A stretch of 56,345 nt of DNA from an uncultured Candidatus Saccharibacteria bacterium (GTDB lineage: Bacteria > Patescibacteriota > Minisyncoccia > Phycocordibacterales > CSBR16-119). The stretch is from positions 1 to 56,345 of the forward strand of contig CAZHCS010000004.1 in the NCBI GenBank assembly GCA_964531475.1, in the 5' to 3' direction. The position numbers and the translations under genes are program-made. This document shows, piece by piece, positions 2,587 to 54,666 of the stretch. The notes beneath the pieces are model-generated. The model ran no database searches. It was given only the letters and a program-made list of their open reading frames with translations, and was not told where the DNA came from. The stretch's first letter is position 1. Each line of letters opens with the position of its first letter.

Positions 2587-2589
2587 TAT

Positions 2590-3234: not shown

Positions 3235-3235
3235 T

Positions 3236-5275: not shown

Positions 5276-5312
5276 ATGGGTAAGTAGGGGGTAGAAAGCA
5301 GAAGTTATTACG

Positions 5313-5337
5313 AAAGGCCGAGAAATACGGCCTTTTT
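5313..5337 (+). terminator. intrinsic terminator after virB4
   Basis: AAAGGCCG-AGAAATA-CGGCCTTTTT: 8-bp stem plus T5. Confidence 0.7.
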
Positions 5338-5378
5338 GGTTTTCCTACTTTTTACTTACTACTTTCTACTTCCTACGA

Positions 5379-5384
5379 TATAAT
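5379..5384 (+). promoter_or_regulatory. -10 box TATAAT 6 nt before the ATG at 5391 (leaderless geometry)
   Basis: cttcctacgaTATAATagcgtcATG. The upstream context ctacttcctacg is the same as at 2161. Confidence 0.5.
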
Positions 5385-5390
5385 AGCGTC

Positions 5391-5966: not shown

Positions 5967-5971
5967 TAAAT

Positions 5972-6943
5972 ATGAGAGGTCACACTGTCATCTTATGCGC
6001 ACTTTCGATACTGATAGGCTGTATGGCTGTACCTTATGACGCCCGCGCGCTCACTGCGAATATTTCCAAGACTCCGGAATACCCAGCTCCGGGCGAGACG
6101 GTTTTTATAAGCGTCTCGGCTCTTGAGTTTAATGCCGCACTTTCGGATATTTCTTGGAAGCTTGACGGTAAACCGCTTGTTTCTGGCGTGGGTAAGACGA
6201 CAGTGTCAGTGACAGCCCCAGCGGCGGGGAAGAAGGCGCTCGTTTCGGCGACAATCAAGCCAAACATTGGCGGCGAACTCGAGCGTTCGATAGAGATCTC
6301 TCCGGCTGGCGTAGACTTACTCTGGGAAGCTACCGACAGCTACGTGCCAGCATTTTATCGTGGTAAGGCATTGCCTATCAAAGAAGGCCAGGTCAAAGTC
6401 GTAGCCGTACCAAATGTTGCAACTGCTAACGGGGCTCTCCGTTCGTCGGGTGCCTTTGCCTACACTTGGCGCAAAGACGGCAAGAACGTACCAAACCAGT
6501 CTGGTCTTGGTAAGGCGGCACTCTCATTTTCTAACCAAATCCTAGACAAGGAAAATCGTGTCGAAGTAGCGGCGACCGATGGCAGCTCGTCTGTTGGGGG
6601 TACGATTATTATTCGCCCGTTCACCCCGGAGGTTATTTTGTATAAAGAAGAAGCGGCGCGCGGGCCCGTACGGGCCCGCGCGCTCCGCGCCGTCGAAGAG
6701 GTTGACGTCTCTCGCGTGACTGTCATCGCCGAACCGTACTTTTTGTCAAAAAATTTCATGACAAATCCTGATATTACGGGGAAGTGGACACTAAACGGCC
6801 AAGAAGCCAAGTCGTCCAGAAAAAACGCACTTCTTATTAATACTGGTTCGACTACAGGCAATGTCTCGGTCGCATTCTCGTACGCCGACGCGCGAAAACT
6901 TTTCCGCAATTTTACGAAATCGTTTACGTTAAATATCAAATAA
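5972..6943 (+). CDS. secreted hypothetical protein, beta-rich (Ig-like repeats likely)
   Basis: Signal-like N-terminus MRGHTVILCALSILIGCMA. ATG at 5972 is preferred over the listed TTG at 5963. Confidence 0.55.
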   Translation: MRGHTVILCALSILIGCMAVPYDARALTANISKTPEYPAPGETVFISVSALEFNAALSDISWKLDGKPLVSGVGKTTVSVTAPAAGKKALVSATIKPNIGGELERSIEISPAGVDLLWEATDSYVPAFYRGKALPIKEGQVKVVAVPNVATANGALRSSGAFAYTWRKDGKNVPNQSGLGKAALSFSNQILDKENRVEVAATDGSSSVGGTIIIRPFTPEVILYKEEAARGPVRARALRAVEEVDVSRVTVIAEPYFLSKNFMTNPDITGKWTLNGQEAKSSRKNALLINTGSTTGNVSVAFSYADARKLFRNFTKSFTLNIK

Positions 6944-6944
6944 C

Positions 6945-8519
6945 ATGAAGCGCCTTCTCTCCATTTTCGCACTCGTTGGTTCGCTCGCTCTTGCGGGAGT
7001 GTTCACTTTTGGCCCAACTGAAGTCGAGGCGCAGAACCCGAATTGTAATGTGACCAACGTCGATTTTCGCACCAACCCGAATGTCGTAGCGAATCCGAAC
7101 GGAGACGACGATGGTGATGGACAATCGAATTTCCAACAAGAATATTTTCAGGACTACGATGGTACATACTTATATATCGACGTGCAGACAAGTGGTTGTT
7201 TAGATGCAGACACGAATGTCGACTTTGGTCTGGACATCTACATAGATAATAGTTGGTGGAGCGGCGGTGACTATCATTTTTTCAATCAAGAACCGAATGA
7301 CATGAAATGGTTCGACGTCCCCACGCAAGATAGTTTTTCCCTGGTGTTCTTTGCGGCAGAAACAGGATGTCATGAGACGATCACCGATACCGCAGAGTGT
7401 ATTTTAAAAGTAAGGACTTCAGATGGTAATTCACAGAATGATTTTTGGCCAGAGTCTCTTCAGTATGACTGTGATGGGGACTGCGATCCGTTTCCGACAC
7501 TCGCAATTGTAGGGTGGCTCTCTTATGGTGCAACTCATCCGAATGACGAACCCGGTGTAAACCCAGGCGCGCCTGGCGGCCAGGCGACCATTTCCTCCGA
7601 AGCATATCTTGCACCATTGCCAGGGCTTGCCGGCCAAGAAGCCGGACTCCAAGGCTTTCTCCAGGGCCTTTTCAATGTACTAATCGTAATTGCCGGTATT
7701 TTGGCGCTCCTTATGATCGTCATTGGAGCTATTCACTATGTTTCTGCCGACAGTTTGGGTGGTACTGAAACGGGTCGCAAGATGATAGGTGCCGCTGTTA
7801 TGGGACTTGTCATTGCTCTTGCAGGATGGGTACTTATCAACACCATCAATCCGAACCTGGCGTCGAATCTGATGATCAAGATTCCGAAAGTCGGTTTTGA
7901 GGTGGAGGGCGACTCAGATACCTATAATAGTGGAACACCAGGATCGAATTTCCAGCTACCTTCCGATGTAGGACTCTATTGCCCTGGCAGTGGTGGCTCG
8001 GCGGCGATACCTCAAATCATCGACAGCTTTATCGGAAAAGTCGCTTACCGTTGGGGTGGAAAAGGGGGCGCATTGGCTGCAGGGCAGAATTTCCCGCTTG
8101 GCCCAGGAGAGACGTCTCAAAATCCTTATATGTGTACGAATGACCAGGGTCAAAAGGTCCCGTGCAATACTTTCTGTCCGACCGGTAACGCATGTCTCGA
8201 TTGTTCAGGATTTGTAAACCATGTTCGTCAGTGTAGTGGCTCGACATCATATGCGACTGGTACTGCTGGTATGATTGCGAATAGTGCTGCAGAAGCAGTA
8301 GACATGAGTCAGTTGAATGCTACCGGAACAAAGATTGGCGAATACACGCTAGTACCTGGGGACTTGCTGATTTGGAACGGGCACGTAGTCGTCTATTATG
8401 GTGACGGGAAATATGCTGAATCAATTGGTGGTGAGGACGGCAGGCAAAAAGGTGCAAACATACGAATTCACAACGTAAAGAAGTACAAGAAGAAAATAAC
8501 GCATATAATCAAGATGTAA
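6945..8519 (+). CDS. secreted protein with VirB2/T4SS-pilin-like TM hairpin fused to a C-terminal NlpC/P60 cell-wall hydrolase domain
   Basis: Signal peptide, then YLAPLPGL...FNVLIVIAGILALLMIVIGAIHYV...GLVIALAGWVLINTINPNL (pilin-type hairpin). The C-terminus carries YRWGGKGG, CLDCSGFV (catalytic Cys) and GDLLIWNGHVVVYYG (His). Confidence 0.75.
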   Translation: MKRLLSIFALVGSLALAGVFTFGPTEVEAQNPNCNVTNVDFRTNPNVVANPNGDDDGDGQSNFQQEYFQDYDGTYLYIDVQTSGCLDADTNVDFGLDIYIDNSWWSGGDYHFFNQEPNDMKWFDVPTQDSFSLVFFAAETGCHETITDTAECILKVRTSDGNSQNDFWPESLQYDCDGDCDPFPTLAIVGWLSYGATHPNDEPGVNPGAPGGQATISSEAYLAPLPGLAGQEAGLQGFLQGLFNVLIVIAGILALLMIVIGAIHYVSADSLGGTETGRKMIGAAVMGLVIALAGWVLINTINPNLASNLMIKIPKVGFEVEGDSDTYNSGTPGSNFQLPSDVGLYCPGSGGSAAIPQIIDSFIGKVAYRWGGKGGALAAGQNFPLGPGETSQNPYMCTNDQGQKVPCNTFCPTGNACLDCSGFVNHVRQCSGSTSYATGTAGMIANSAAEAVDMSQLNATGTKIGEYTLVPGDLLIWNGHVVVYYGDGKYAESIGGEDGRQKGANIRIHNVKKYKKKITHIIKM

Positions 8520-8522
8520 TTT

Positions 8523-10154
8523 ATGCAACGCTCTACCACATTTAAAATCCTAATCGTACTAGCCGGCGTATTGGTCGTTGCGTTTTCGTGGATTCTCATA
8601 CGTGACGCACGCAACCGTCGTATCGAAAATACGCCACCTTACACCGGAATTGAAAACCCATTTGGTTTTGATGACACCGACGTCGATATCGATGGCGACC
8701 CAGCTGATCCAAGCACCGCTCCATCCGATGTCGATGGGGAAGCGCCGTCGCCGCAGCCGGGCCAGGGCGGAGGAATTGTTGTTATTCAGTCAGAAAAACC
8801 ACTCGTCAAACTTTCGGATGTGGCAGTCGCCGGGTATACGTTTGTTTCCAAAGAACGCATAATCGAAACGCCAGCCTCGACGACTCCGACCACTGGTATC
8901 GTCGAGACATATGATTTTTCTGGTTACAAGACCATACGCTTTGGTGACAAGACCGAAGAGGTTATTGCTATTAAAACAGTTTTAAATAGAGAGACGCCGT
9001 CGCCAGCACTTGTAATTTCCGACGAATACGACACTGACATGAAAAATGCGGTTGTCGATTTCCAGAATAAAAAAGGCCTCTCTGGAGATGGCGTTATTGG
9101 TCCCAAGACTTATCAGATGCTAAATGCTGCTCAGGGAATTACTGGTTTTTCTTCCGCACCAAAAAAAGACCCGGTTGAAGTTGTAGAATTTGTACGTTAC
9201 GTCGACGCGGGAAGCGGTATCATGTTTGATCAAACTATTCGTAAACAAGAAAAGGCTGTCGCCATAACCACAAGTCCAGTACCAGGCGTCGCCGAAGCCT
9301 TTTTTGACGCAACAGGAACAAAGGCCATACTGCGGTATTTGAAAGAAGGCGTTATCGAAACGTATCTTGTGTCTCTGGAATTCCCGACCATTGATCCAAA
9401 ACTATCAGCGGAAGAGCGAGCAAAGATAGATACGACCGCCAAGGTCTCTGGCGAATTTTTGCCACAAAATATACGGAGTCTCGATGTTTCGGCTGACAAA
9501 AAAAGTTTTGCTTTCTTGCAACCAGTCTCTGGCGGCGTTGCGCTTATGACGCAGAACTTTGCGACCAAACAAAAAAAACAAGTTTTTGAGTCTATGTTTA
9601 CTGACTGGCTTGTAGACTATGCGTCGGCAGGGAAGATTTCGCTCACGACCCGCGCGTCTGGACTGGTTGAAGGCTTTTCTTATTCGGTCGAGACTTCTGG
9701 CGGCGCCATGCGCAAATCGGTTGGCGGCCGTTTGGGTCTTACGGCGCTTATGTCACCGGACGGTAAAAAAGTTTTGGCTGCTGAATACAAAGACGGGGCG
9801 CTCGCGACAACAATTTTTGACCTAGCAAATGGCAAGGCGACCCCGGTTTCACCTTCGGCACTTCCGGAAAAATGTGTCTGGACGCTCGACTCATCTCATA
9901 TATATTGCGCCGCGCCAATTCGTAGTGTTTCTATGGTTTATCCAGACGATTGGTACAAGGGCTTGAACGGTTTTGACGACGCGATCTGGGATATTGAAGT
10001 TGCGGCTGGTATCGGTAATATCGTTTATGACATATTTGCAAAAACCAGCGAACGTATCGACGCAACCAACCTTTATCTAAATACTAGCGAAGACTTCCTA
10101 GGATTCATCAACAAGAATGATGGAATACTTTGGGGTTACGATTTAAATAAGTAG
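8523..10154 (+). CDS. membrane-anchored protein with PG_binding_1 domain and large beta-rich C-terminal domain
   Basis: N-terminal TM segment. Contains DTDMKNAVVDFQNKKGLSGDGVIGPKTYQMLN (peptidoglycan-binding motif). Last gene of the locus. Confidence 0.65.
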   Translation: MQRSTTFKILIVLAGVLVVAFSWILIRDARNRRIENTPPYTGIENPFGFDDTDVDIDGDPADPSTAPSDVDGEAPSPQPGQGGGIVVIQSEKPLVKLSDVAVAGYTFVSKERIIETPASTTPTTGIVETYDFSGYKTIRFGDKTEEVIAIKTVLNRETPSPALVISDEYDTDMKNAVVDFQNKKGLSGDGVIGPKTYQMLNAAQGITGFSSAPKKDPVEVVEFVRYVDAGSGIMFDQTIRKQEKAVAITTSPVPGVAEAFFDATGTKAILRYLKEGVIETYLVSLEFPTIDPKLSAEERAKIDTTAKVSGEFLPQNIRSLDVSADKKSFAFLQPVSGGVALMTQNFATKQKKQVFESMFTDWLVDYASAGKISLTTRASGLVEGFSYSVETSGGAMRKSVGGRLGLTALMSPDGKKVLAAEYKDGALATTIFDLANGKATPVSPSALPEKCVWTLDSSHIYCAAPIRSVSMVYPDDWYKGLNGFDDAIWDIEVAAGIGNIVYDIFAKTSERIDATNLYLNTSEDFLGFINKNDGILWGYDLNK

Positions 10155-10568
10155 TAGGTATTAGGTATTAAGGATTAAGGATGGGGCAGATTTCTGACTT
10201 TAGAGATTTGATTGCATGGAAAGATGGGCATAAGCTAGTACTTTTCATTTATGATGCGACTAAGAAATTCCCCAAAGAAGAAATCTACGGTTTGACGAGC
10301 CAAATGAGACGAGCAGTTGTATCAGTGACATCAAATATCGTAGAAGGTTTTGGTCGGCAGGGCTATAAAGAAAAGATACATTTTTATTACGTATCGCAAG
10401 GTTCCTTAATCGAATTGAAAAACCAAATAGAAATAGCAAAAGATGTCGGGTATCTATCGACGAAGGATTATGACCATGCCTTAGTATTAGCAAATCAGGC
10501 CCACAGATTGCTCCAGGGCCTGATTACTAGGTGTAAATCGTTTCTTAATACTTAATACCTAATACCTA
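10155..10568. repeat. perfect 18-bp inverted repeat bracketing the four-helix-bundle gene
   Basis: TAGGTATTAGGTATTAAG (10155-10172) is the exact reverse complement of CTTAATACCTAATACCTA (10551-10568). Confidence 0.85.
10181..10555 (+). CDS. four-helix-bundle protein (23S rRNA intervening-sequence protein family)
   Basis: 124 aa. Motifs FRDLIAWKDGHKLVLFIYDATKKFPKEEIYGLTSQMRRAVVSVTSNIVEG and YYVSQGSLIELKNQIEIA. Confidence 0.85.
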   Translation: MGQISDFRDLIAWKDGHKLVLFIYDATKKFPKEEIYGLTSQMRRAVVSVTSNIVEGFGRQGYKEKIHFYYVSQGSLIELKNQIEIAKDVGYLSTKDYDHALVLANQAHRLLQGLITRCKSFLNT

Positions 10569-27167: not shown

Positions 27168-27398
27168 TTAGCTTTTAGCTTCCGACGGAGCTTTCGCCTT
27201 TTTTACGCGGATGTTCGCGTGAGGGAACATGCGAGCGCGGTCTTTGTTAGACATGCGGAAATTGATCGGAGTCTTACCCTGAAGCTGCTTAGTGCGCTTT
27301 TGTTTTGCATTGAAATGGTTAAAACCCGGCTTGCGAGCTTTGAGCTTGCCGTTCTTGGTTATCTTGATGCGCTTGGTGAATGATTTGTTCGTTTTCAT
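27168..27398 (-). CDS. rpmI: 50S ribosomal protein L35
   Basis: MKTNKSFTKRIKITKNGKLKARKPGFNHF. Confidence 0.93.
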   Translation of the reverse strand: MKTNKSFTKRIKITKNGKLKARKPGFNHFNAKQKRTKQLQGKTPINFRMSNKDRARMFPHANIRVKKAKAPSEAKS

Positions 27399-27461
27399 CC
27401 CGTTAGAAATATCTTATTAAGCTTATTTTGTGTCTCCATGTCTCCCGATTTCTAACGGGAT
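27397..27461 (-). promoter_or_regulatory. 14-bp perfect inverted repeat (37-nt loop) covering the rpmI start codon, copy 1 of 2
   Basis: ATCCCGTTAGAAAT (27397-27410) pairs with ATTTCTAACGGGAT (27448-27461). Fills the infC-rpmI spacer. A near-identical element lies at 49684-49764. Confidence 0.6.
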
Positions 27462-38168: not shown

Positions 38169-38172
38169 CCTC

Positions 38173-38290
38173 GCAAAATTTATCTGAAAAAGGTACGGAA
38201 TAACCCGCCCTTAATAAGGCGGGTTTTCCTCTACCTCGGCGCGCTTGTGAACACGCGCCTGCGGTAAGCCCTTTTTCAGATAAATTTTGC
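38173..38290. repeat. 118-bp MITE-like palindromic element with perfect 21-bp terminal inverted repeats
   Basis: GCAAAATTTATCTGAAAAAGG (38173-38193) faces CCTTTTTCAGATAAATTTTGC (38270-38290). It encloses two hairpins: ACCCGCC..GGCGGGT plus a T-run (the rplE terminator) and GGCGCG..CGCGCC. Confidence 0.6.
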
Positions 38291-38523
38291 TCCGCGGGAA
38301 GTGGCACTTCCATTTTCTGGGTGGTTGGTGTAAGTTAAAGAAAACCATTCCAATGACATCGTATGACGCTTATCTCTCCAAGATCAAGATAAAGATCTTG
38401 GAAAGCAGCACCATCCTTCCCAAAGGTGTCGAGTCCAAGTACCTCGCCCGGGTGATTGATGGGCGACTCGTCGTAGAAACGCGCGTCAGAAAGCCTCGCT
38501 AGTCGGGGTTTTCTTTCTAATAG

Positions 38524-38551
38524 TTGACAAAAACCTGTCATCTGCTAGTAT
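38524..38551 (+). promoter_or_regulatory. restart promoter for rpsN-secY (TAGTAT class)
   Basis: TTGACA (38524-38529), 16 nt, TAGTAT (38546-38551). 164 nt separate the -10 box from the rpsN ATG. Confidence 0.6.
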
Positions 38552-38715
38552 GTCCCTCGTACCGGTTCAATCCGCGTTTCTCCTTATGAGGTCGGTCCCG
38601 CGACTGAAATTATAAGAAAAAACGTGAGATATTACCGGTTACCGGTCTGTAACCGCCAGCCATTAGCCTTTAGCTAACGGCCAATGGCTACAAGCTGCTA
38701 GCTTAATAATCAACA

Positions 38716-38985
38716 ATGGCCAAAACATCAGTATTAGCGCGAAATGAAAAGCGCATAAAGCTCGTCGAGAAGTACGCTAAAAAGCGTGCTGCTTTAAAGG
38801 CTGCAGGGGATATGGCGGGCCTTCAGAAGCTCCCAAAAAACTCTTCGCCTTCTCGTCTCAAAAACCGTTGCGGTCTCACTGGCCGCGGCAAGGGTTATAT
38901 GCGTGATTTCGGTGTTTCTCGTATCAAGTTTCGCGAGTTGGCTTCGGTCGGTGAAGTCCCAGGCGTCAGGAAATCATCTTGGTAA
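38716..38985 (+). CDS. rpsN: 30S ribosomal protein S14 (long, non-zinc form)
   Basis: [58 protein letters not shown]. Only one Cys. Confidence 0.95.
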
Positions 38986-39024
38986 ATCTATTTTCTACTT
39001 AATACTTCCTACTCACTCAATACC

Positions 39025-47181: not shown

Positions 47182-48723
47182 TCACTTTGTGACCTTGTAG
47201 AAAAAGCCATCACGGGCGCCAAAGTATAGTGCGCCATTCCAGAGCGCCGGCGTCGATTCGATGCATGAACCGCTTGGGATAGATATTTCAGAAATAAATT
47301 TTGGTCTCGCAGGATCTACTAGATCGTAGAAACGCATACGGCCGTCGCAGGTTGCCACTAACAACTCGTTCTCGGAAACAATAGGAGAAGACCATGCGTG
47401 CGCGCCTATATCGTCGCGATAGGTGACAGAGCCGTCACGAATATCTATTACTAGCAATTCGCCTGGGTTCGTTGGTACATATAAAAAGTTTTCATGGAGG
47501 GCTGGTGTTGCCCAGACGCCGCCCGGGATCCCGGACACTTTTGATGGCACGTCGACGCTCCATACAAGAGGTTCGGCAAGCTTAGGATCAAGTTTCATGA
47601 TTTGTCCGACTTCGCGCGAGCGCTCATTTAGACGTTCGGCTTCGACTGAGACGTAGAGCATGCCTGATTTGTCTACCACTATACTTGCATCAATATCGTC
47701 GCCGGCCCAGAAATCGAAAACTATCGGAGTTTCTCCCGAAGAAACATTGGCCAAATCTACCCCAAGCACTCTTCCGCCAGAATTGGCAAAATATGCAGTG
47801 TTTTCGAAAAGCGCCACCGAGTTTTCAATACTCATATTTTTATCTCCAACTTTTTTTATGAAATCATCGTCATACGAAGGCAGCGTAGCTATCACAGTAG
47901 GGTAAACAGAAACGCGACCGTTCGCATCGTATGCGCGATTTAGCTTGATGACGAAGAACCATCCGTTTTCGCCACCGGTCACGAGCATGTCGTCGATAAT
48001 GACTGGGTTTGCATCCCAATCGTCGTTCCATATGCCTGGCAGATCTTTGGAATCAAGATGCCACAATTCTTTTGTTGTGTCGTCTTCGAGCGAGACGATG
48101 CGCAGCTTGTTGTCACGCGAGCCGAAGTAGATGAGAGGATATCCATTAGGGTCGAGAGTCACCGATCCTTTGATTATATCGTCCGTTGGAAAAGGTGCGC
48201 GCGATTCTTTGCCTGTTTGGGCATCCACGAAGTGTATTTTTTTGTCGTATGCGCCAAAGATTATTTCAGTAATACCATCGTGTTCGTAAACGACTGGTTG
48301 ACCGGTCCAGCCATTGCCACACCATTGTTTCAAGACACCTTTGTCTGTGCTTTCTGAACACATAGCGTTTTGTGGGTAGCGCCATGCTATGTCGCCATCT
48401 TTTGGCATCGCGCCAGAACCGTACCAACTTCTAGTAGGGTTGCCGCGAAACATCGAGAGCGTCGAACCATAGCGTTCACCGACAGTGTGCGCCGAGCGTG
48501 CTAGTGGCGGTGGATTATCAAAACGTTCTTCGACCGACTGAACAGCGGTAACGGTTTCGGTTTTTATTAGTGATACGACGCGGGATAGTGCTTCGATTGT
48601 TGTGTCGGCCCCGGCCAGCGCTACATGAGATGCCACGGCAATGATGAGCGCGGCCGACGCAGCAAAAAGCGCGCGTCGGCCGCGGCTCTTTGGACGGTAC
48701 TCTTGGTAGAATTCATACTTCAC
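47182..48723 (-). CDS. secreted PQQ-like / BamB-like beta-propeller repeat protein
   Basis: N-terminal TM/signal segment. Repeated blades such as LLVATCDGRMRFYDL, FLYVPTNPGELLVIDIRDGS and ALYFGARDGFFYKV. GTG start. Confidence 0.7.
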   Translation of the reverse strand: MKYEFYQEYRPKSRGRRALFAASAALIIAVASHVALAGADTTIEALSRVVSLIKTETVTAVQSVEERFDNPPPLARSAHTVGERYGSTLSMFRGNPTRSWYGSGAMPKDGDIAWRYPQNAMCSESTDKGVLKQWCGNGWTGQPVVYEHDGITEIIFGAYDKKIHFVDAQTGKESRAPFPTDDIIKGSVTLDPNGYPLIYFGSRDNKLRIVSLEDDTTKELWHLDSKDLPGIWNDDWDANPVIIDDMLVTGGENGWFFVIKLNRAYDANGRVSVYPTVIATLPSYDDDFIKKVGDKNMSIENSVALFENTAYFANSGGRVLGVDLANVSSGETPIVFDFWAGDDIDASIVVDKSGMLYVSVEAERLNERSREVGQIMKLDPKLAEPLVWSVDVPSKVSGIPGGVWATPALHENFLYVPTNPGELLVIDIRDGSVTYRDDIGAHAWSSPIVSENELLVATCDGRMRFYDLVDPARPKFISEISIPSGSCIESTPALWNGALYFGARDGFFYKVTK

Positions 48724-48782
48724 ATGCTTATTTTACAGAAATTTAAAGAGATGGGAAGTCTTCCGAGTGGGCGCACTGCGAA

Positions 48783-48815
48783 GCACAAACGCCCGATATG
48801 ATCGGGCGTTTGTGC
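48783..48815 (-). terminator. 15-bp perfect hairpin just 3' of tmRNA
   Basis: GCACAAACGCCCGAT-ATG-ATCGGGCGTTTGTGC. Confidence 0.55.
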
Positions 48816-48822
48816 GTAGTAG

Positions 48823-49204
48823 TGGAGGCGACGGTGTTGAAACCGCGTCCAAGGGATTTTCTTCACAAGGTCTACATGCGTAGGTTGTTTTTTGATTTAA
48901 GCCCTTGTCCTAGAGAACAAACAAAACAGACAGGGGCCGAGTCTTGGGTTTTCGTCGCGCAGGCAGACAGGCTGTGCGCTTATCCCGATTGTATTATGCC
49001 TCTTTGCCTTATCGGAAGTCAGAGCAAAGAGACACCGGCAGCGCTATTAAGCGAACGCCGGAGCGAAGCCGCTCTTTGCGAATTGCAAAGGAGACTTCAC
49101 CAATCCTTTAGATTTTGCATCTAGAGGGTTGAAGCTTTTTAGCGAGATGCTTCAGCTCGGCATGCGTTATGAAGAAGGCATCCGATGTCGAAACGAGCGC
49201 CCCC
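48823..49204 (-). ncRNA. ssrA: tmRNA (SsrA)
   Basis: The 5' end is GGGGGCGCUCGUUUCGACAUCGG and the 3' end is ..GCGGUUUCAACACCGUCGCCUCCA. Acceptor pairing GGGGGCG/CGCCUCC includes G3:U70. An internal tag frame starts at GCA (49118) and ends UAA UAG (49049-49044). Lies 37 nt downstream of smpB on the same strand. CCA is not encoded. Confidence 0.85.
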
Positions 49205-49241
49205 ATGTTGAAGGCTTCAGAGAAACCTGCAAAAGGGGAGG

Positions 49242-49685
49242 CTAGTTTTTGAGTCGGCGACCTAAGTCTTTTTCAATGTCCCGCTTCTTAATACTAAGAC
49301 GTTTGTCGAATTTTTTCTTACCTTTCGCAAGCGCGATGGCAAGTTTCAAGTTCCGGCCCTTATTATACAATGAAAGTGGTATAATTGTCAAGTTACCGCC
49401 ACGCTTCTTTTCAGCGAGCTCGCGGAGCTCTTTTTTCGAGAGTAGTAGTTTCCGCTCCCGATGCGGATTGTAGCTATCTGGCGTGTTGGCTACCTGATAT
49501 GGCGGGATATATGCGTTAACTAGAAACGCTTCTTCGTCTCGTAGCGTTACATAGCTTTCGCTTATCGAGCCCTGACCGGCCTTGAGTGACTTTACTTCAA
49601 ATCCCAAGAGAGAAATACCCGCCTCGAATGTTTCAAGCGTCGTGTAATCGCGTCCGGCTTTGGCGTTGCGGGCAAGTGTTTCCAT
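49242..49685 (-). CDS. smpB: SsrA-binding protein SmpB
   Basis: The ATG at 49685 gives METLARNAKAGRDYTTLETFEAGISLLGFEVKSLK. The listed upstream extension runs through the palindromic element. Confidence 0.92.
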   Translation of the reverse strand: METLARNAKAGRDYTTLETFEAGISLLGFEVKSLKAGQGSISESYVTLRDEEAFLVNAYIPPYQVANTPDSYNPHRERKLLLSKKELRELAEKKRGGNLTIIPLSLYNKGRNLKLAIALAKGKKKFDKRLSIKKRDIEKDLGRRLKN

Positions 49686-49764
49686 CACGTTAGAAATAGG
49701 TCGCGGTTGTACCTTAGTATGCCTTTGGGGTATCACCGTTAGCGACCGCGATTTCTAACGTGAT
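49684..49764 (-). promoter_or_regulatory. 14-bp perfect inverted repeat (53-nt loop) covering the smpB start codon, copy 2 of 2
   Basis: ATCACGTTAGAAAT (49684-49697) pairs with ATTTCTAACGTGAT (49751-49764). Inner extra pairing CGCGG/CCGCG. Flanks match copy 1 at 19/21 and 21/24 positions. Confidence 0.6.
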
Positions 49765-49770
49765 TCATGG

Positions 49771-49799
49771 TTGGCCTTTGGGCCCGTTCATTGTATAAT
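49771..49799 (+). promoter_or_regulatory. promoter of ftsH
   Basis: TTGGCC (49771-49776), 17 nt, TATAAT (49794-49799). The ATG at 49812 lies 12 nt further on. Confidence 0.55.
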
Positions 49800-49811
49800 G
49801 ACGGGACTTTT

Positions 49812-51770
49812 ATGCCAAACGAGCCTATAAAACAAAAGAAAAAGAAAAGTCGCAAAGACGGTGGCTTTTCCGGCAAGCTTTTAAGCGTCTTTTTTATATT
49901 TTTGTCAATACTGGCGCTTTATTCCATATTCTCCGATACGTCAGGCAAGCCCGAAGATATATCTTTGTCCGAACTTGCTTACGAAATCAAAACCGGCACG
50001 GTCGCCGACATTGTTGTCGAAGGTGACAAGCTAGTCATCACGCGCAATGACGAAGCAAAAACAGTTGTGTACTCAAAAAAAGAACGCGAGTCGTCTCTTT
50101 CTGAAACTCTTGGAAATTATGGCGTGACTCCCGAAGCCTTGGCGCAAACGACAATCACTATAAAAAGTGAATCAGGATTTTTATTCTGGGTAGGTAATTT
50201 GTTACCGTTTCTCATTCCGGTAATCTTTATAATTCTTTTCTTTTGGTTTATCAGCAGGCAGGTCAAAGGCCAGGGCATGCAAGCTTTTTCTTTCGGTGAG
50301 TCAAAGGCCAAAATTACTGACCCTGAAGATGCGAGCAAGGTAACATTTAAAGACGTTGCTGGTGTTAAAGAGGCCAAAGAAGAGCTAGAAGAGATTGTCG
50401 ATTTCTTGCGCAATCCGAAAAAGTTCATCGACATTGGCGCGCAGATACCAAAAGGTGTTTTACTCGAAGGTGCGCCAGGTACCGGTAAGACCTTGCTTGC
50501 TCGCGCAGTTGCCGGCGAAGCCAACGTACCATTCTTTCATTTGTCCGGATCAGATTTTGTTGAAATGTTTGTTGGTGTTGGTGCATCGCGTGTTCGCGAC
50601 CTGTTTAAGATGGCGAAAAAAGCTGCACCATCGATCGTTTTTATCGACGAGATCGATGCTGTTGGAAGAAAGCGCGGTTCGGGTTTTGGTGGCGGAAACG
50701 ATGAACGCGAACAGACTCTCAACCAGATTTTGACCGAGATGGATGGTTTCGAGCAGAATCAAAAGGTAATAGTAATGGCAGCTACCAATCGTGCGGACGT
50801 ACTTGATCCAGCACTCCTTCGCCCGGGACGCTTTGATCGACGTGTTGTTGTCGAGTTGCCTGACAGGAAAGATCGCGAAGAGATTTTACTCATCCATGCT
50901 CGCAAAAAGCCACTCGAGAAAGATGTAGATTTGAAAGTAGTTGCTGAACGTACGCCAGGGTTTTCTGGGGCAGATTTGTACTCACTTATGAACGAAGCTG
51001 CTATCCGAGCGGCTCGCCAAAATAGAAAGAAAGTCTTGCAGGAAGATGTTATTTCTTCGATCGAAAAAGTTTTGATCGGTCCGGAAAGGAAGAGTCATTT
51101 GCTGTCTCCGCGTGAGAAAAAGATCACGGCTTACCACGAAGCGGGACACGCACTCGTCGCGTCGGTACTTCCTGACGCTGATCCGGTACACAAAGTTACT
51201 ATCGTATCGCGCGGTCGCGCTGGTGGTTTTACTATGAAGCTTCCACTCGAAGAAAAAAAGCTTCAGCCTCGCAAGGATTATTTGGATGACATTGCCATGT
51301 CGCTTGGCGGATATGCTGCGGAAAAAATAGTCTTCGGTGATATTACGACTGGCCCGTCATCGGACCTACAGGTCGCGTCGCGTTTGGCTAGGGCCATGGT
51401 TACCAAGTGGGGTATGTCGGATGTAATCGGGCCAGTTGCTCTCGAAGGTCGCGACAGCGAAGTTATGTACGGTCGCGGCTTCGGCGACAAAGAACATTCT
51501 GACCAGATGGCGGCGACGATTGACGCCGAAGTAAAAAAGATAATCGATGATAGTTTGAAAGTCGCAGAGCAGGTTATCAACGACAAGCGCGAAGTATTGA
51601 ATGCTATTGCTGAAGCTTTGATCGAAAAAGAATCGCTCGAACAAAAAGAATACAACGAACTTATTGAAAAATTCGGCATCAAACCGAAAAAGCTCCCGGA
51701 ACATGCGAAAGCAGCCGGCGATCCGAAGCCAGAAATCACCGATGTGCCGAAGGAGGAATTGAAGAAGTAA
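49812..51770 (+). CDS. ftsH: ATP-dependent zinc metalloprotease FtsH
   Basis: [39 protein letters not shown]. Two N-terminal TM segments. ATG at 49812 is preferred over the listed 49767. Confidence 0.95.
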
Positions 51771-51776
51771 AAAGAT

Positions 51777-51799
51777 AAAAGCCCCCAAGTGGGGCTTTT
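51777..51799. terminator. bidirectional terminator (ftsH / tRNA locus)
   Basis: AAAAGCCCC-CAAGT-GGGGCTTTT, with T-runs on both strands. Confidence 0.8.
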
Positions 51800-51808
51800 A
51801 TCTTTTTG

Positions 51809-51850
51809 TCCGCCCTCTAGGATTCGAACCTAGGACCCCAGAGGTATATG
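51809..51850 (-). pseudogene. 3' half of a second tRNA(UAU)-like gene (anticodon-loop remnant, V loop, T arm, acceptor 3' strand)
   Basis: Minus strand reads CAUAUAC-CUCUG-GGGUC-CUAGG-UUCGAAU-CCUAG-AGGGCGG-A. No matching 5' half is adjacent. The complementary acceptor strand lies at 52049-52055. Confidence 0.6.
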
Positions 51851-51863
51851 AATTATTCCAGAG

Positions 51864-51937
51864 TCCGTCCTCCTGGATTCGAACCAGGGACCCCAGAGGT
51901 ATAAGCTCTGTGCTCTAACCAACTGAGCTAAGGACGG
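51864..51937 (-). tRNA. tRNA with anticodon UAU (reads AUA; tRNA-Ile2-like)
   Basis: 74-nt cloverleaf. Acceptor CCGUCCU/AGGACGG. D arm GCUC-AGUUGGUUA-GAGC. Anticodon stem CAGAG/CUCUG with loop CUUAUAC. V loop GGGUC. T arm CCUGG-UUCGAAU-CCAGG. Discriminator A. CCA not encoded. Confidence 0.85.
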
Positions 51938-51958
51938 ACTCTAGAATTTTCAAATTCG

Positions 51959-52020
51959 TATAACGGATTTGCTCGGATTCGATGAGAGCAAGCTCTCGCC
52001 GATCCTCACTGCCCGTTATA
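51959..52020 (-). other. 62-nt hairpin insert with 8-bp TATAACGG/CCGTTATA ends, located in the anticodon loop of the disrupted tRNA
   Basis: UAUAACGG..GGAU..GAGAG-CUUG-CUCUC..AUCC..CCGUUAUA. Both arms repeat the UUAUA of the anticodon loop. Confidence 0.55.
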
Positions 52021-52055
52021 AGCTCTGGTGCTTAACCAACTAAAGCTTTGGGCGG
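52016..52055 (-). pseudogene. 5' half of the disrupted tRNA(UAU)-like gene
   Basis: Minus strand reads CCGCCCA-AA-GCUU-UAGUUGGUU-AAGC-A-CCAGAG-CUUAUAA. Pairs 6/7 with the AGGGCGG strand at 51810-51816. Has A at position 8 and an irregular D arm, so it looks degenerate. Confidence 0.55.
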
Positions 52056-52109
52056 TTGATAGGAAACAGTCTATATCAAATAAGCTATTTTTTCAATTTA
52101 TCTATACTA

Positions 52110-52137
52110 TTGACTTTTCTTTATATTATGCTACTAT
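52110..52137 (+). promoter_or_regulatory. promoter of the 52161 gene
   Basis: TTGACT (52110-52115), 16 nt, TACTAT (52132-52137). Confidence 0.5.
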
Positions 52138-52160
52138 ATAAAAAACTCAAACTTCCCGAC

Positions 52161-52463
52161 ATGGACCGCACACAACTGCAAAATGCAATCGCCAACGTGA
52201 AGCCCGGGCAGAAGTTGAAGCTCCGGTTCAATGAAGAGGCGAAGCGTGGTGGCCTGAATTATTTCTTCCGCCTCGGTCTGGGTGACAGAATGATCGAGAT
52301 CGATCCGACTGATATCCAGACACTGAGGATTGTTCTACAATACGCGGATTGGAACAAGGAGTCCAACAAGATGGCGCAAATCACTGTGCTTGATACTTTT
52401 GATCAGCAGTGGTTCGTGTACCATATGTACCGCGAACTCGACAGCATCGAAGTGCTGAACTAG
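52161..52463 (+). CDS. hypothetical protein (100 aa)
   Basis: The ATG at 52161 lies downstream of the promoter. The listed TTG start at 52056 would overlap the tRNA locus. Confidence 0.45.
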   Translation: MDRTQLQNAIANVKPGQKLKLRFNEEAKRGGLNYFFRLGLGDRMIEIDPTDIQTLRIVLQYADWNKESNKMAQITVLDTFDQQWFVYHMYRELDSIEVLN

Positions 52464-52479
52464 GCGTTCTCGCCAACCG

Positions 52480-52503
52480 AAAGGGTCTCGCAAGAGGCCC
52501 TTT
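52480..52503. terminator. bidirectional terminator (hypothetical / recG)
   Basis: AAAGGGTCTC-GCAA-GAGGCCCTTT. Confidence 0.75.
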
Positions 52504-52509
52504 CTCTTT

Positions 52510-54666
52510 TTACTCAAAATGGATCTTTTTCTCGCGGCGGAGGAATTCGGATTGAAGAAGTGGGAATTGTGGCAAGAGATTTTTTGTAATAATCTCGCGG
52601 GCTTCATTTCGCGCAGCTTCGACGAGTTTGAGGTTTTTGATTGCCTCCATCCCAAGATCCGAAACGCCCCATTGTTTCATACCGGACAGGTCGCCCGAGC
52701 CGCGCAGCTGTAAATCCATTTCCGAAAGTTCAAAACCGTTTTTTGCTGTCTTGAGTGCGGTCAGGCGGTCCAAGCTTTTCTTTGATTCCGTATCAGGAAA
52801 GAGAAAACAATACGCTTGGTGGTTTGAACGGATGACGCGGCCGCGTAGTTGGTGGAGCTGGGCGAGACCAAAACGTTCCGCACCTTCGATAATTATCATA
52901 GTTGCGTTTGGAACGTTCACGCCGACTTCGACAACGCTGGTGGCGCAGAGGATATCAATCTTTCCGTCAGAGAATTCTTGCATGACGTCTTCTTTTTCCG
53001 TCTTTGTCATTTTGCTATGAAGAATGCCTATGTTTTTGTCTTGAAAGACGTTGGCTTTTAGCCTCTTGGCTTCGGCGATGACAGAGCGGGTCTGCAGCGC
53101 CATCTCGTTTTCTGGATCTGGCTCGTCGATACGTGGACAAATGACGTACAACTGTCGGCCACTCGCCATTTCTTTTTTAATAAAATCATAAGTCGCGTCT
53201 CGTTTGTCGGGCGTGATTATTTCGGTAATGACAAGCTTGCGGCCTTTTGGCATTTGGTCGAGCAGCGTTAGGTCAAGGTCGCCGTAGATAGTGAGCGCAA
53301 GAGTGCGGGGAATAGGTGTTGCTGTCATCGAAAGAAAATGCGGAGCAAAGTCTTCTTTTTTAGCTAATTTGCCACGCTGTTTGGTACCAAAGCGGTGCTG
53401 CTCGTCGACTATAGCGAGCGCCAAATGTTTGAACTTTACGGATTTGTAAATGAGGGCATGCGTACCGATGAGTATAGGGATCTCGCCGTTCGCGACCCAC
53501 TTGAGGAGTTGAGCTTTAGAAATGTTCGTGGATGACCCAGGGTCGATTTTCGACGGGAATTTCTTGCACGACGCGCCAGTGATGAGCCCGATCTGGATGC
53601 CGGTGTGGGTGAAGTATTGGATAAAGCTTTCGAAATGCTGGTTGGCCAAAATTTCCGTCGGGGCCATGTATGCGACCTGGAGATTGCCGAAACTTTTTCC
53701 ATCTGGCCTATTCATGATTGTCGCGTATGCGGCAGTGGCGGCGACGGCAGTTTTGCCGGAGCCGACATCGCCTTCGAGAAGTCGCGACATCGGATAATCC
53801 TTTTGAAAGTCGGCAAATACGTCGCCGATCGCGCGACTTTGTCCAGCTGTCATCTCAAAAGGAAATCGATCGGTAAAACTTTTTATGTCTTTCTGATCGA
53901 CTGCGATCTTGAACGATTTTTTATCTTTGTTTTCTTCGCGCTCGCGTTGTTTTTCCAGCTGGATAAAAAAGACCTCTTCAAAAGCGAAGCGCTTCCTGGC
54001 GGCTTCGGCATCACGCTTGGCGCGCGGCATGTGGATCCAGACGACAGCGGTCGAGAGTTTTGGCAAGCTGTATTTTTTTAAAATTTCTTCTGGTATGTAG
54101 TCATACAATTCTTCGACTAGACGGTTTGCTATTATTTTTTCGACTGCGTGGTAGATCCATTTTGACGTGATGCCTTTGGTTTCGCGATAAATAGGGAAAG
54201 AGAAATCCTTTTGCGCGTCGGTGTTGGCAAAAAGCGAATCATGGACGTCTATTGGTTGGCCTGCGCCGCGTTCGTATTCTGGGTTGTTCATGGAAAGACC
54301 ATATTTGCCGGCAGAAACTTTTCCAGTGAGTGCTACTTTTTGTCCGTCGCGCAAAACTTTTCCGACAAAAGCTTGGTTGAACCAGGTGACCTTCAATTTT
54401 CCAGTTCCGTCGTCCAAGACGCCTTCGGCCATGGGGATTTTTGTCTTGAACGATTTTTTAACTTTAAGTTTCGAAATCTCGCCGTAAACCGTCGCTGTTT
54501 CGCCGCCTTCTAGATCGCGGATTAATTTAACTAAGCTTTGATCGCTATAGCGTTCTGGGAAATAAAATAGAAGATCGGCGACGATATTTAGACCCAATCT
54601 TGCTAGGGCCTTTTTCTGGTCGGGGGTGAGTCTGAATTGGGTTTCGATGGCGTCGCGCAGTTGCAT
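52510..54666 (-). CDS. recG: ATP-dependent DNA helicase RecG
   Basis: 718 aa. GDVGSGKT, AIVDEQHRFG, MTATPIPRTLA, QLHQLRGRV. N-terminal wedge-like domain. Confidence 0.93.
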   Translation of the reverse strand: MQLRDAIETQFRLTPDQKKALARLGLNIVADLLFYFPERYSDQSLVKLIRDLEGGETATVYGEISKLKVKKSFKTKIPMAEGVLDDGTGKLKVTWFNQAFVGKVLRDGQKVALTGKVSAGKYGLSMNNPEYERGAGQPIDVHDSLFANTDAQKDFSFPIYRETKGITSKWIYHAVEKIIANRLVEELYDYIPEEILKKYSLPKLSTAVVWIHMPRAKRDAEAARKRFAFEEVFFIQLEKQREREENKDKKSFKIAVDQKDIKSFTDRFPFEMTAGQSRAIGDVFADFQKDYPMSRLLEGDVGSGKTAVAATAAYATIMNRPDGKSFGNLQVAYMAPTEILANQHFESFIQYFTHTGIQIGLITGASCKKFPSKIDPGSSTNISKAQLLKWVANGEIPILIGTHALIYKSVKFKHLALAIVDEQHRFGTKQRGKLAKKEDFAPHFLSMTATPIPRTLALTIYGDLDLTLLDQMPKGRKLVITEIITPDKRDATYDFIKKEMASGRQLYVICPRIDEPDPENEMALQTRSVIAEAKRLKANVFQDKNIGILHSKMTKTEKEDVMQEFSDGKIDILCATSVVEVGVNVPNATMIIIEGAERFGLAQLHQLRGRVIRSNHQAYCFLFPDTESKKSLDRLTALKTAKNGFELSEMDLQLRGSGDLSGMKQWGVSDLGMEAIKNLKLVEAARNEAREIITKNLLPQFPLLQSEFLRREKKIHFE

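Follow-up and report, generated by a model that had tools for sequence, protein, structure and literature searches.

A tRNA-Ile(UAU) gene nested between the halves of another in a Saccharibacteria genome: a probable insertion scar

RESULTS

A complete tRNA-Ile(UAU) gene lies between two tRNA halves

The locus lies on a 56,345-nt contig from an uncultured Candidatus Saccharibacteria bacterium (this whole stretch is referred to here as the window), between ftsH (49767 to 51770, plus strand) and recG (52510 to 54666, minus strand), which form the conserved left and right borders of a variable interval. On the minus strand, read 5′ to 3′ from 52055 to 51809, a tRNA 5′ half is followed by a 62-nt hairpin, a spacer, a whole tRNA-Ile(UAU), and a tRNA 3′ half. 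The original prediction had placed five such parts on this strand, and we found all of them at the positions it gave, with the 14-nt spacer as described. Upstream of the nested unit, 12 nt before the outer 5′ half, is a sigma-70-like promoter, TTGAAA-17-TAGACT (52068 to 52096, minus strand), which is the sole promoter-like site on the minus strand of the locus, none having been found inside the inserted DNA; sequence comparison shows homology to the promoter that precedes the intact tRNA gene in the related locus L001 (ATTGAAAAAAAGACCGTTTTACTATAGACT). Downstream, ftsH and the tRNA unit share a bidirectional intrinsic terminator (51769 to 51807), whose perfect 17-bp stem closes a 5-nt loop, with T runs on both strands; L086, L094, and L001 have homologous terminators. 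The remaining gene of the interval is a variable “cargo” ORF of 100 amino acids (52161 to 52463, plus strand) with a promoter-like site of its own at 52110 to 52137; Pfam and PADLOC assigned no family to the cargo ORFs.

The inner tRNA (51864 to 51937, minus strand) is the presumed working gene and the only one that ARAGORN and Rfam called at the locus. ARAGORN places a tRNA-Ile(tat) at 51863 to 51937, Rfam model RF00005 scores it at 69.3 bits (gathering score, 29), and a custom tRNA-Ile(UAU) covariance model gives 98.1 bits, which bears out its earlier description as complete. It has the cloverleaf, the conserved D- and T-loop bases, the 7-nt anticodon loop, and the above-threshold score of a canonical bacterial tRNA, together with all 30 invariant columns of a 22-sequence alignment in which it is itself one row; its discriminator is A73, CCA is not encoded, and it is identical to the L086 tRNA at 71 of 71 positions. 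AUA accounts for 37 of the 148 isoleucine codons in five neighbouring genes, and tRNA-Ile(UAU) is probably the sole AUA decoder in these reduced genomes.

The outer halves probably derive from one gene and are unequally preserved

A sibling genome with 98.1% nucleotide identity up to the ftsH stop codon and 97.2% up to the recG stop codon has one intact tRNA gene, of the outer type. Compared with it, the outer 3′ half (51850 to 51809) is unchanged, being identical at 42 of 42 positions to the sibling tRNA in L087 and at 40 of 40 to L008, and its T arm matches the covariance model at 17.8 bits (E = 1.6e-4). By position it corresponds to the tRNA of L086. The outer 5′ half matches the intact 5′ half of the sibling in 33 of 40 columns, a score reached by none of 5,000 shuffles, and differs from it by T7A, T8A, C13T, an added T, loss of G22, and an added C27. 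These changes violate T8, C13, A14, and G22, columns invariant in 22 homologues, and the 5′ half scores 11.8 bits on the covariance model (E = 0.008). Decay is asymmetric, with ~7 changes in the 5′ half against none in the 42 bases of the 3′ half, a pattern that simple simultaneous neutral decay does not predict. Two of the changes look structure preserving, in that the D stem (GCTT/AAGC) keeps four pairs.

That retained pairing bears on whether the outer halves might still make a tRNA, either by being ligated into a second tRNA-Ile(UAU) around a functional intron or by pairing as a two-piece tRNA. RNase P and RNase Z would then free the inner tRNA, while the outer halves would remain paired and be trimmed. 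The halves do pair in the minimum-free-energy (MFE) fold, and, when they were joined in silico, ARAGORN called a tRNA-Ile(tat) at default settings. Archaeal split tRNAs are held together by helices, and the leader-trailer helix at this locus resembles them by analogy. In place, however, the halves gave no ARAGORN call in intron mode (0 to 400 nt, relaxed scores), and the joined product fails as a canonical tRNA at A8, C13T, a shifted A14, the deleted G22, and an A7-A66 mismatch, with A8, A14, and the mismatch falling at positions invariant in the 22 homologues. Both of the splicing-related readings that the original prediction had left open, an intron-like nested arrangement and a split-tRNA precursor, also lack their hallmarks. 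Rfam found no group I core between 51500 and 52400, at either the gathering threshold or E ≤ 10, and omega-G is absent, the last inserted base being A or T in all five registers that TATA allows. There is no bulge-helix-bulge: the junctions show 2-nt and 5-nt unpaired stretches in both the MFE and centroid structures, with no 3-nt bulges separated by a 4-bp helix. No splicing endonuclease or ligase domain was present in the 59 ORFs of the window, and we know of no bacterial tRNA splicing endonuclease. The nested arrangement is not conserved, being absent from the 98% sibling and from all relatives. We regard a functional intron-containing or split tRNA as extremely unlikely.

Two TATA-bounded palindromic blocks fill the anticodon loop

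The whole locus can be read as a single tRNA gene with two palindromic inserts, H (54 nt) and T (110 nt), in its anticodon loop, CT-TATA-C. Three copies of TATA set the inserts apart, and this parse accounts for every base. All of the following features are on the minus strand. In the resident tRNA-Ile(UAU) gene, the outer 5′ part (52021 to 52055) comprises the acceptor 5′ strand, the D arm, the anticodon-stem 5′ strand, and C32 and U33. TATA copy 1 (52017 to 52020) supplies loop positions 34 to 37 and flanks H on its left; H itself (51963 to 52016; search pattern ACGGGCAGTGAGGATCGG) is an imperfect palindrome, ACGG...CCGT, delimited by the fold, the repeat analysis, and the parse. TATA copy 2 (51959 to 51962) separates H from T. 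The left arm of T (CGAATTTGAAAATTCTAGAGT; 51938 to 51958), the last 10 nt of which pair with the right arm, leads into the inner tRNA, and the right arm (CTCTGGAATAATTCA; 51849 to 51863), placed by repeat analysis and the parse, leads out of it to TATA copy 3 (51845 to 51848), the right flank of T. The outer 3′ part (51809 to 51844) then resumes with C38 and continues through the anticodon-stem 3′ strand, variable loop, T arm, and acceptor 3′ strand to A73.

Removal of H, T, and two copies of TATA leaves CAGAG-CTTATAC-...-GGGCGGA, which matches the sibling tRNA exactly from its anticodon stem through to its 3′ end, as expected if, as had been proposed, one tRNA-Ile(UAU) gene was split at its anticodon loop by an insert carrying a paralogue. 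The insertion point in the anticodon loop was thus correctly recognized, whereas the insert is neither ~165 nt long nor a single piece; it amounts to 172 nt (H + TATA + T + TATA) in two TATA-bounded palindromic blocks and contains no ORF. Similarly, the “CAUAUAC” that had been taken for a loop is a junction made up of the last two bases of the insert, the repeated TATA, and C38.

H and its flanking TATA copies make up the 62-nt hairpin (52020 to 51959), which the MFE fold reproduced as originally drawn, and Rfam returned no match for the hairpin at E ≤ 10. The arms of T are part of a 17-nt inverted repeat (ATTCTAGAGTCCGTCCT/AGGACGGACTCTGGAAT; arm search pattern ATTCYAGAGTCCGTCC), the right arm plus A73 being the reverse complement of the left arm save for a 5-nt gap and a single mismatch. 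The inner acceptor stem is extended by a helix of 10 bp, not 7 bp as first thought; in 21 relatives this extension measures 0 to 2 bp. The predicted 256-nt transcript folds into the nested structure with a ΔG of −107 kcal/mol (z = −6.9), which no shuffle equals in MFE. Both blocks have symmetric ends, ACGG/CCGT in H and (C/T)GAATT..ATTC(T/C)AGAGT in T, so that terminal inverted repeats are present along with a putative target-site duplication, TATA three times over; TATA is short and AT rich, and the middle copy could therefore be a chance occurrence.

No further copy of H or T was found in the 56-kb window, in 97 loci, in phage and plasmid collections, or in one viral-contig scan, with only chance matches in the phage, plasmid, and viral sequences. 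The 10-nt T arm had 8 matches in the window at ≤1 mismatch, against 5.2 expected, none of them paired, and among the loci it was absent except from L085 and one unrelated site in L072. A mobile-element origin is consequently no more than a candidate. Transposase, integrase, and homing-endonuclease domains were absent from the 59 ORFs of the window, and tblastn with the Y1 transposase of L084, the M23 peptidase of the sibling, and the GIY-YIG proteins gave no match there. We also considered whether H is related to an insert of ~100 nt in L010 and L013 and rejected this, the sole match being a 9-mer (p = 0.044).

The same parse bears on whether the locus began as three tandem tRNA genes, with deletions that removed the 3′ half of the first and the 5′ half of the third. 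Bacteria often carry tRNA genes in tandem arrays. Against this origin, homology of H or the spacer to the tRNA or its reverse complement was limited to a T-loop-like stretch of 8 to 11 nt (p = 0.05 to 0.7), so that neither carries the missing half of a tRNA; both outer halves have the same type of acceptor stem, and together the junctions give back exactly one loop. In none of the relatives do tRNA-Ile(UAU) genes stand in tandem at this site. The tandem origin can hardly be entertained on this evidence.

An independent assembly supports the left part of the structure

A further concern was that the structure might be a chimeric join of reads from co-occurring strains that differ in tRNA type or orientation. 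Close strains with the tRNA in opposite orientations do exist, many contigs break inside this tRNA, and only one assembly shows the right-hand junctions. The left part of the structure, in contrast, withstood the check for misassembly: Logan contig L085 (SRR13355622), built independently by a different assembler, is 100% identical over window positions 51909 to 53463, spanning the promoter, the 5′ half, the hairpin, the spacer, and the start of the inner tRNA, and thereby matches 147 nt of the structure exactly. The unique spacers (CGAATTTGAAAATT and CTCTGGAATAATTCA) and block H must be present in the reads, the shared repeats are ≤15 nt (15 nt being the longest at the right-hand junctions), which is below the usual assembler k-mer size, and the structure is internally regular, with three TATA copies and symmetric arms. 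We judge an artefact to be very improbable.

The nested form is strain specific and lies in a rearrangement hotspot

The comparison of orthologous loci called for by the original prediction showed a single uninterrupted tRNA gene in the sibling and in ~25 relatives, and all other relatives whose sequence covers the site have a single tRNA. This makes the nested form strain specific and not conserved, and there was no conservation with covariation of the kind that indicates a structured RNA, H and T being without a homologue in the sequence searched. These intact genes, together with the broken invariant positions of the 5′ half, favour the first of the originally proposed readings, an insertion or replacement event with a decaying host tRNA.

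The surroundings of the gene vary widely. Even close relatives differ in the strand that holds the tRNA and in their cargo genes. In L016 and L020, an orphan 5′ half that breaks off in the anticodon loop lies a short way upstream of an intact copy; L010 and L013 have displaced 3′ fragments, direct repeats of 20 and 56 nt that start in the T loop; L005 and L097 have a GIY-YIG ORF directly behind a 5′ remnant of this tRNA gene; and L084 and L090 have an IS200-like element beside the tRNA. As judged from these comparisons, the ftsH-recG interval is a hotspot in which this tRNA has been rearranged repeatedly in Patescibacteria. Two other candidate remnants were rejected: a T-loop-like match at 1719, considered as a displaced 3′ half near ftsH in L020, falls within smpB, and “TAGCTGCTTTGAT” in L004 is coding sequence.

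The relatives with single fragments raise the alternative that two unrelated events are superimposed here, one leaving an orphan 5′ half and the other, of the integrase type, occurring in the anticodon loop, regenerating the tRNA and displacing a 3′ fragment, after which nearly all of the island was deleted. The outer halves would then merely resemble partners because both derive from tRNA-Ile(UAU) genes. Orphan 5′ halves do occur without 3′ halves (L016 and L020), as do displaced 3′ fragments without 5′ halves (L010 and L013); the inner and outer 3′ halves form an attL/attR-like direct repeat of 41 nt with 88% identity, and a T4-G69 wobble would also let the inner 5′ half pair with the outer 3′ half. 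On the other hand, the outer halves share a CCGCCC-type acceptor stem with C4:G69, whereas that of the inner tRNA is of the CCGTCC type with T4:A69; the TATA-bounded parse covers every base and restores the exact loop; the leftover “island” would be just 15 nt and the mirror image of the leader, which a single palindromic block explains better; and the window holds no integrase. Two separate events thus seem distinctly unlikely to us.

We consider it probable that the locus is the scar of an insertion that disrupted the resident tRNA-Ile(UAU) gene while the copy it brought took over that gene's function, and that it is not a novel kind of spliced tRNA. The event is recent and strain specific. 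The resident gene, with its own promoter and terminator, would have been interrupted by 172 nt at the TATA of its anticodon loop, with T probably inserted first, because it brought the replacement tRNA, and H then entering the left copy of TATA. Candidate routes are transposition of a miniature element with a 4-bp target duplication and capture of DNA at a staggered break. Transcription of the whole unit would start at the resident promoter and stop at the resident terminator, and the inner tRNA would be released by RNase P and a 3′ endonuclease, receive CCA, and decode AUA. The 17-bp helix around the RNase P site may hinder this maturation. The outer halves would be by-products without a function of their own, the 5′ half having already lost conserved bases.

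DISCUSSION

tRNA genes are known landing sites for mobile DNA, and the known solutions to the damage are to rebuild the gene by fusion or to splice the insert out. Under the insertion-scar interpretation, an enzyme-free insert of 172 nt both breaks the gene and brings a spare copy, with both old halves still visible, and the locus offers a clean snapshot of tRNA gene replacement. It is also a warning for annotation, since half-tRNAs with an intact gene beside them can be mistaken for split tRNAs or for tRNAs with introns.

Islands and prophages that integrate into tRNA genes leave a regenerated gene and a displaced fragment (Williams 2002; Islander, PMC4383910; tRNA gene fragments, PMC9897764). 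The present locus resembles them in that a tRNA gene is the target, the break point is the anticodon loop, a partial tRNA copy forms a direct repeat beside an intact gene, and the site is a variable hotspot; the classical form is seen in L010 and L013. It differs in that the insert carries a whole separate tRNA, with no repair by fusion and with both old halves persisting, and that the junction repeat is only 4 to 5 nt, the outer junctions sharing TATA. Furthermore, the insert is 172 nt long with neither integrase nor ORF, and an orphan 5′ half is atypical of integrase events.

Bacterial miniature inverted-repeat elements (MITEs) such as Correia and RUP make short target duplications at TA-rich sites. 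Like them, the blocks are short (54 and 110 nt), noncoding, symmetric at their ends, bounded by TATA, and predicted to form RNA hairpins. Unlike them, each block is present in one copy in the sequence searched, no cognate transposase was identified, and a whole tRNA gene forms the core of one block, an arrangement for which we know of no description in a bacterial MITE.

Group I introns occur in the anticodon loops of bacterial tRNA genes (Williams, bioRxiv 10.1101/2020.01.27.920355), and here, too, a bacterial tRNA gene is broken in that loop. The insert, in contrast, holds a tRNA and not a ribozyme; it lacks a catalytic core and omega-G, is too short, and is not conserved. In archaea, intron-containing, split, and permuted tRNAs and the transposition of tRNA introns have been described (PMC10714607; see also PMC3218864, PMC4033280, and PMC4390854). 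As in those tRNAs, the halves are parted in the anticodon loop and a tRNA body is flanked by a helix of leader and trailer, whereas the present locus is bacterial, has no bulge-helix-bulge and no known endonuclease, has a degenerate 5′ half, and is strain specific.

A more speculative idea, which we think unlikely, is that block T, whose arms lengthen the acceptor helix of the whole tRNA-Ile(UAU) within it, is a miniature mobile or invertible cassette that targets the anticodon-loop TATA of its cognate resident gene, a self-compensating element that would break an essential single-copy tRNA gene and replace it at the same time. The same process, driven possibly by the GIY-YIG nuclease of L005 and L097, would then have left the orphan 5′ halves that stand behind native promoters in L016, L020, L005, and L097. 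If the inner block were indeed mobile, it would represent a new kind of selfish element riding on an essential tRNA.

Genes for free-standing GIY-YIG homing endonucleases can propagate through cleavage of a conserved gene next to them (“intronless homing”). The GIY-YIG ORF behind the broken 5′ remnant in L005 and L097 is similarly placed, whereas the window has no GIY-YIG gene. By analogy, that nuclease could be the source of the breaks that make this tRNA a hotspot. The L005/L097 ORF is conserved more strongly than the flanking ftsH.

Two blocks apparently part the anticodon loop of a single tRNA gene

On the minus strand, the original prediction set out five parts: the 5′ half of a tRNA, a hairpin of 62 nt, a spacer, a complete tRNA-Ile(UAU), and the 3′ half of a tRNA. 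The sequence bears this layout out. The locus can be parsed, with no base left over, as one tRNA gene with the anticodon loop C-T-TATA-C that holds two blocks parted by TATA copies. Along the minus strand, the outer 5′ part plus CT (52055-52021) is followed by the first TATA (52020-52017); H, a 54-nt imperfect palindrome, ACGG...CCGT (52016-51963); the second TATA (51962-51959); T, a block of 110 nt (51958-51849); the third TATA (51848-51845); and C38 with the outer 3′ part (51844-51809). T consists of CGAATTTGAAAATTCTAGAGT, the inner tRNA (51937-51864), and CTCTGGAATAATTCA. Deletion of H, T, and two TATA copies yields CAGAG-CTTATAC-CTCTG...GGGCGGA, which, anticodon stem through 3′ end, is identical to the tRNA of the sibling, a 98%-identical genome. 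The hairpin arms had been said to repeat the anticodon loop, and the parse accounts for this, as the arms consist of the TATA copies on either side. The CAUAUAC with which the 3′ half had been said to begin is not a second anticodon loop; the parse resolves it into the end of T, TATA, and C38.

T is itself palindromic, its leader and trailer being reverse complements of each other bar one mismatch and a 5-nt gap, so that the inner acceptor stem is embedded in a 17-nt inverted repeat. This stem is extended, as predicted, but by 10 further base pairs rather than 7, versus 0 to 2 in 21 relatives.

The nested locus is real and unlikely to be an intron

When the locus was checked with ARAGORN and Rfam, as had been suggested, the inner tRNA alone was called (Rfam, 69.3 bits), and the intron mode of ARAGORN made no call for the outer halves in place. 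With default settings, the outer halves were called as tRNA-Ile(tat) once they had been joined in silico. Under a covariance model derived from 22 tRNA-Ile(UAU) genes found in relatives, the inner tRNA scored 98.1 bits, and weak partial matches were obtained for the outer T arm, at 17.8 bits (E = 1.6e-4), and for the outer 5′ half, at 11.8 bits (E = 0.008). Aligned with its sibling counterpart, the outer 5′ half agrees in 33 of 40 columns, a score reached by 0 of 5,000 shuffles, and the outer 3′ half is identical to the tRNAs of the sibling (42/42) and of another relative, L008 (40/40). A 256-nt transcript is predicted to fold into the nested structure (ΔG, −107 kcal/mol; z = −6.9). Furthermore, Logan contig L085 (SRR13355622), which has 100% identity over 51909-53463, covers the 5′ half, the hairpin, the spacer, and the start of the inner tRNA. 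Because of the sequence, tool calls, shuffles, fold, identities, and L085, we regard the nested locus as real, far beyond chance. An assembly artefact is unlikely, being opposed by L085 and by the shortness of the repeats, although the right-hand junctions come from a single assembly.

Introns of bacterial tRNAs are group I introns (10.1101/2020.01.27.920355). A group I intron was rejected here, as Rfam found no core, no omega-G was present in any register, and the insert is too short. An archaeal-type intron or split tRNA was likewise rejected, as the predicted fold contains no bulge-helix-bulge, the arrangement is not conserved, and the host is bacterial. Both the intron-like nested arrangement and the split-tRNA precursor that had been entertained are thereby set aside. 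Nor do three tandem genes with deletions explain the locus, since neither H nor the spacers show any relation to tRNA and a single loop is restored at the junctions. A limited literature search turned up no report of a split tRNA gene in bacteria that harbours a complete tRNA.

The ftsH-recG interval is variable among relatives

The minus-strand tRNA locus lies between ftsH (49767-51770, plus strand) and a 100-amino-acid open reading frame (ORF) (52161-52463, plus strand), which is followed by recG (52510-54666, minus strand). The closest genome is covered by L083, which has 98.1% nucleotide identity to 47813-51769 and ends exactly at the ftsH stop, and by L087/L088, with 97 to 98% identity up to the recG stop; these share just 9 nt, within the tRNA, such that their tiling is inferred. 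In this sibling genome, ftsH is followed by a promoter, one intact plus-strand tRNA of the CCGCCC acceptor type, a gene for an M23 peptidase, and recG. Thus, within one species the whole interval differs and the tRNA is reversed. In L086, which has an FtsH in the same 90% cluster and 79% nucleotide identity, ftsH is followed by a homologous terminator and a minus-strand tRNA identical (71/71) to the inner tRNA of the window, at the position of its outer 3′ half.

Among genomes with 80 to 98% identical FtsH (L001, L006, L081, and L083 to L097), tRNA-Ile(UAU) occurs on either strand, minus in L001 and L094 to L096 and plus in L006, L081, L084, L090, and L092/L093. The promoter adjoins ftsH in the plus-strand form, and the minus-strand form has the shared terminator. 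The cargo beside the tRNA varies (M23 peptidase, a 63-amino-acid membrane ORF, the 100-amino-acid ORF, and ORFs of 174 to 299 amino acids, the last without Pfam or PADLOC matches). The proposed comparison of relatives' loci by BLAST and covariance model revealed no nested form and no second nearby copy. In the L001 tRNA, the acceptor is of the inner type and the T arm of the outer type, a mosaic suggestive of crossovers within the gene, and most Logan contigs of this interval end inside tRNA-Ile(UAU).

A resident gene was probably broken and functionally replaced

Our best reading, which we consider probable, is that an insert interrupted the anticodon loop of a resident gene and that the complete tRNA it brought along took over the function of that gene. 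The proposal of an insertion or replacement with a decaying host tRNA is supported by lost invariant bases and an intact inner copy. At positions invariant in the 22 homologues, the outer 5′ half has A in place of T8, T in place of C13, an A14 out of register, no G22, and an A7-A66 mismatch, so that a joined product would probably be defective; the predicted signs of decay, A8 and the irregular D arm, both fall at such positions. AUA accounts for 25% of Ile codons in neighbouring genes, and a working decoder is therefore needed; in Mycoplasma mobile, the AUA decoder is described as tRNA-Ile(UAU) (PMC3575796). Decay is uneven, with ~7 changes in the outer 5′ half versus 0 in the 3′ half. That two independent events made the outer halves is a live rival, to which we give a small share of belief.

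The only promoter-like site on this strand at the locus (TTGAAA-17-TAGACT, 52096-52068, minus strand) lies just upstream of the outer 5′ half, and none was found inside the insert. Downstream of the outer 3′ half comes a terminator hairpin (51769-51807), its 17-bp perfect stem bordered by T runs on either side. Both are homologous to those around intact tRNA-Ile(UAU) genes (L001, L086, and L094). Judged by sequence, these signals are those of the outer gene, which would mean that the inner tRNA must be expressed from that gene's promoter and terminator.

If the resident gene was replaced in this way, T would have been inserted first and H afterwards, into the left TATA copy, an order favoured because it avoids a lethal intermediate. 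The blocks may be miniature transposable elements, which symmetric ends and a 4-bp duplication would fit; alternatively, a staggered break at TATA may have been followed by DNA capture, or a palindrome extended by template switching. No second copy of H or T was found in the 56-kb window, 97 loci, phage and plasmid collections, and one viral-contig scan, and no transposase was found among the 59 ORFs of the window. The outer and inner halves share direct repeats, one of 25 nt at 80% and one of 41 nt at 88%, that should permit deletion back to a single chimeric gene, which fits the rarity of the nested state. The configuration is real, strain specific, and unusual, within a known phenomenon in which a tRNA gene is the site of mobile or recombined DNA; tRNA fragments displaced by integrations are well documented (PMC4383910, PMC9897764).

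The same tRNA gene is a recurrent target in the group

L016 (6333-6385) and L020 (4767-4826, minus strand) each contain an orphan 5′ half that breaks off within the anticodon loop (...TATAC and CATATA, respectively), 2 and 21 nt upstream of an intact copy. The two orphans share one change, GCTGTTTTGGT replacing GCTCAGYTGGT, and the acceptor stem of each matches its own neighbouring tRNA. The L020 remnant is flanked by 12-nt inverted repeats (TTTTACGATACC / GGGATCGTAAAA) and still has the original promoter, homologous to L021/L025, ahead of it, and L016 has further AAAGCT/AGCTTT-rich fragments upstream. In L010 (6589-6708) and L013 (3478-3658), a second copy of the 3′-terminal portion of the tRNA, starting in the T loop, stands 120 and 148 nt downstream of the intact gene; the resulting direct repeats span 20 nt at 100% identity and 56 nt at 93%. 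The homologous ~100-nt noncoding insert in between (common ACTCGAAAAGGTT, a variable hairpin, and CTGYACTGAARCTGTAAGC) matches no Rfam family and resembles a small integrated element of the classical T-loop type.

A tRNA 5′ remnant in L005 (6929-7123) and L097 (6008-6176) comprises positions 1 to 13, a GC-rich hairpin of 38 to 44 nt, and the D-loop AGTTGRTTAG, followed by an ORF starting MFYTYVLKSLKD..LYIGFS.DLKKRF.EHNKG, the N terminus of a GIY-YIG nuclease, within which both contigs end. The two ORFs are 85% identical, whereas the FtsH genes are far more diverged, and they may represent a homing-endonuclease-like element aimed at this tRNA gene. Finally, L084 (6955-7690) and L090 (4710-5440) carry an IS200-like element (Y1 transposase, ~205 amino acids) between the ftsH stop and the tRNA promoter, with terminal hairpins (ACTCAAGGTTCGACCTTGAGT) that resemble a tRNA T arm. 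Taken together, these cases mark tRNA-Ile(UAU) as a recurrent target in the group.

Genomic setting

The window consists of core chromosomal sequence from a Patescibacteria (CPR) bacterium, with a ribosomal protein operon, tuf, secY, nusA, tig-clpP, and a type IV secretion-like cluster; metagenome-assembled genomes encoding related FtsH are labelled Saccharibacteria, Paceibacterota, or Minisyncoccia. A tmRNA (48820-49204, minus strand; Rfam, 128 bits) received no ARAGORN call in the window, unlike in most relatives, and smpB lies between it and ftsH. Within 2173-10552, the type IV secretion-like cluster encodes PrgI, a TraG/VirB4-like P-loop ATPase, and NlpC/P60 and peptidoglycan-binding proteins, and after it comes an ORF (10181-10552) of the "23S rRNA intervening sequence protein"/bAvd-like kind. 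Some members of the bAvd-type family are accessory proteins of diversity-generating retroelements.

Of two mutually similar pairs of 14-nt inverted repeats, ATC(C/A)CGTTAGAAAT / ATTTCTAACG(G/T)GAT, one adjoins infC (27397-27461; arms 37 nt apart) and the other lies in the smpB-ftsH intergenic region (49684-49764; 53 nt apart), and they may be binding sites for one common regulator. In the ribosomal protein operon, an ~850-nt gap separates rplE from rpsH (38169-39024), where a perfect 21-nt inverted repeat (38173-38193 / 38270-38290) surrounds 76 nt with a terminator-like hairpin.
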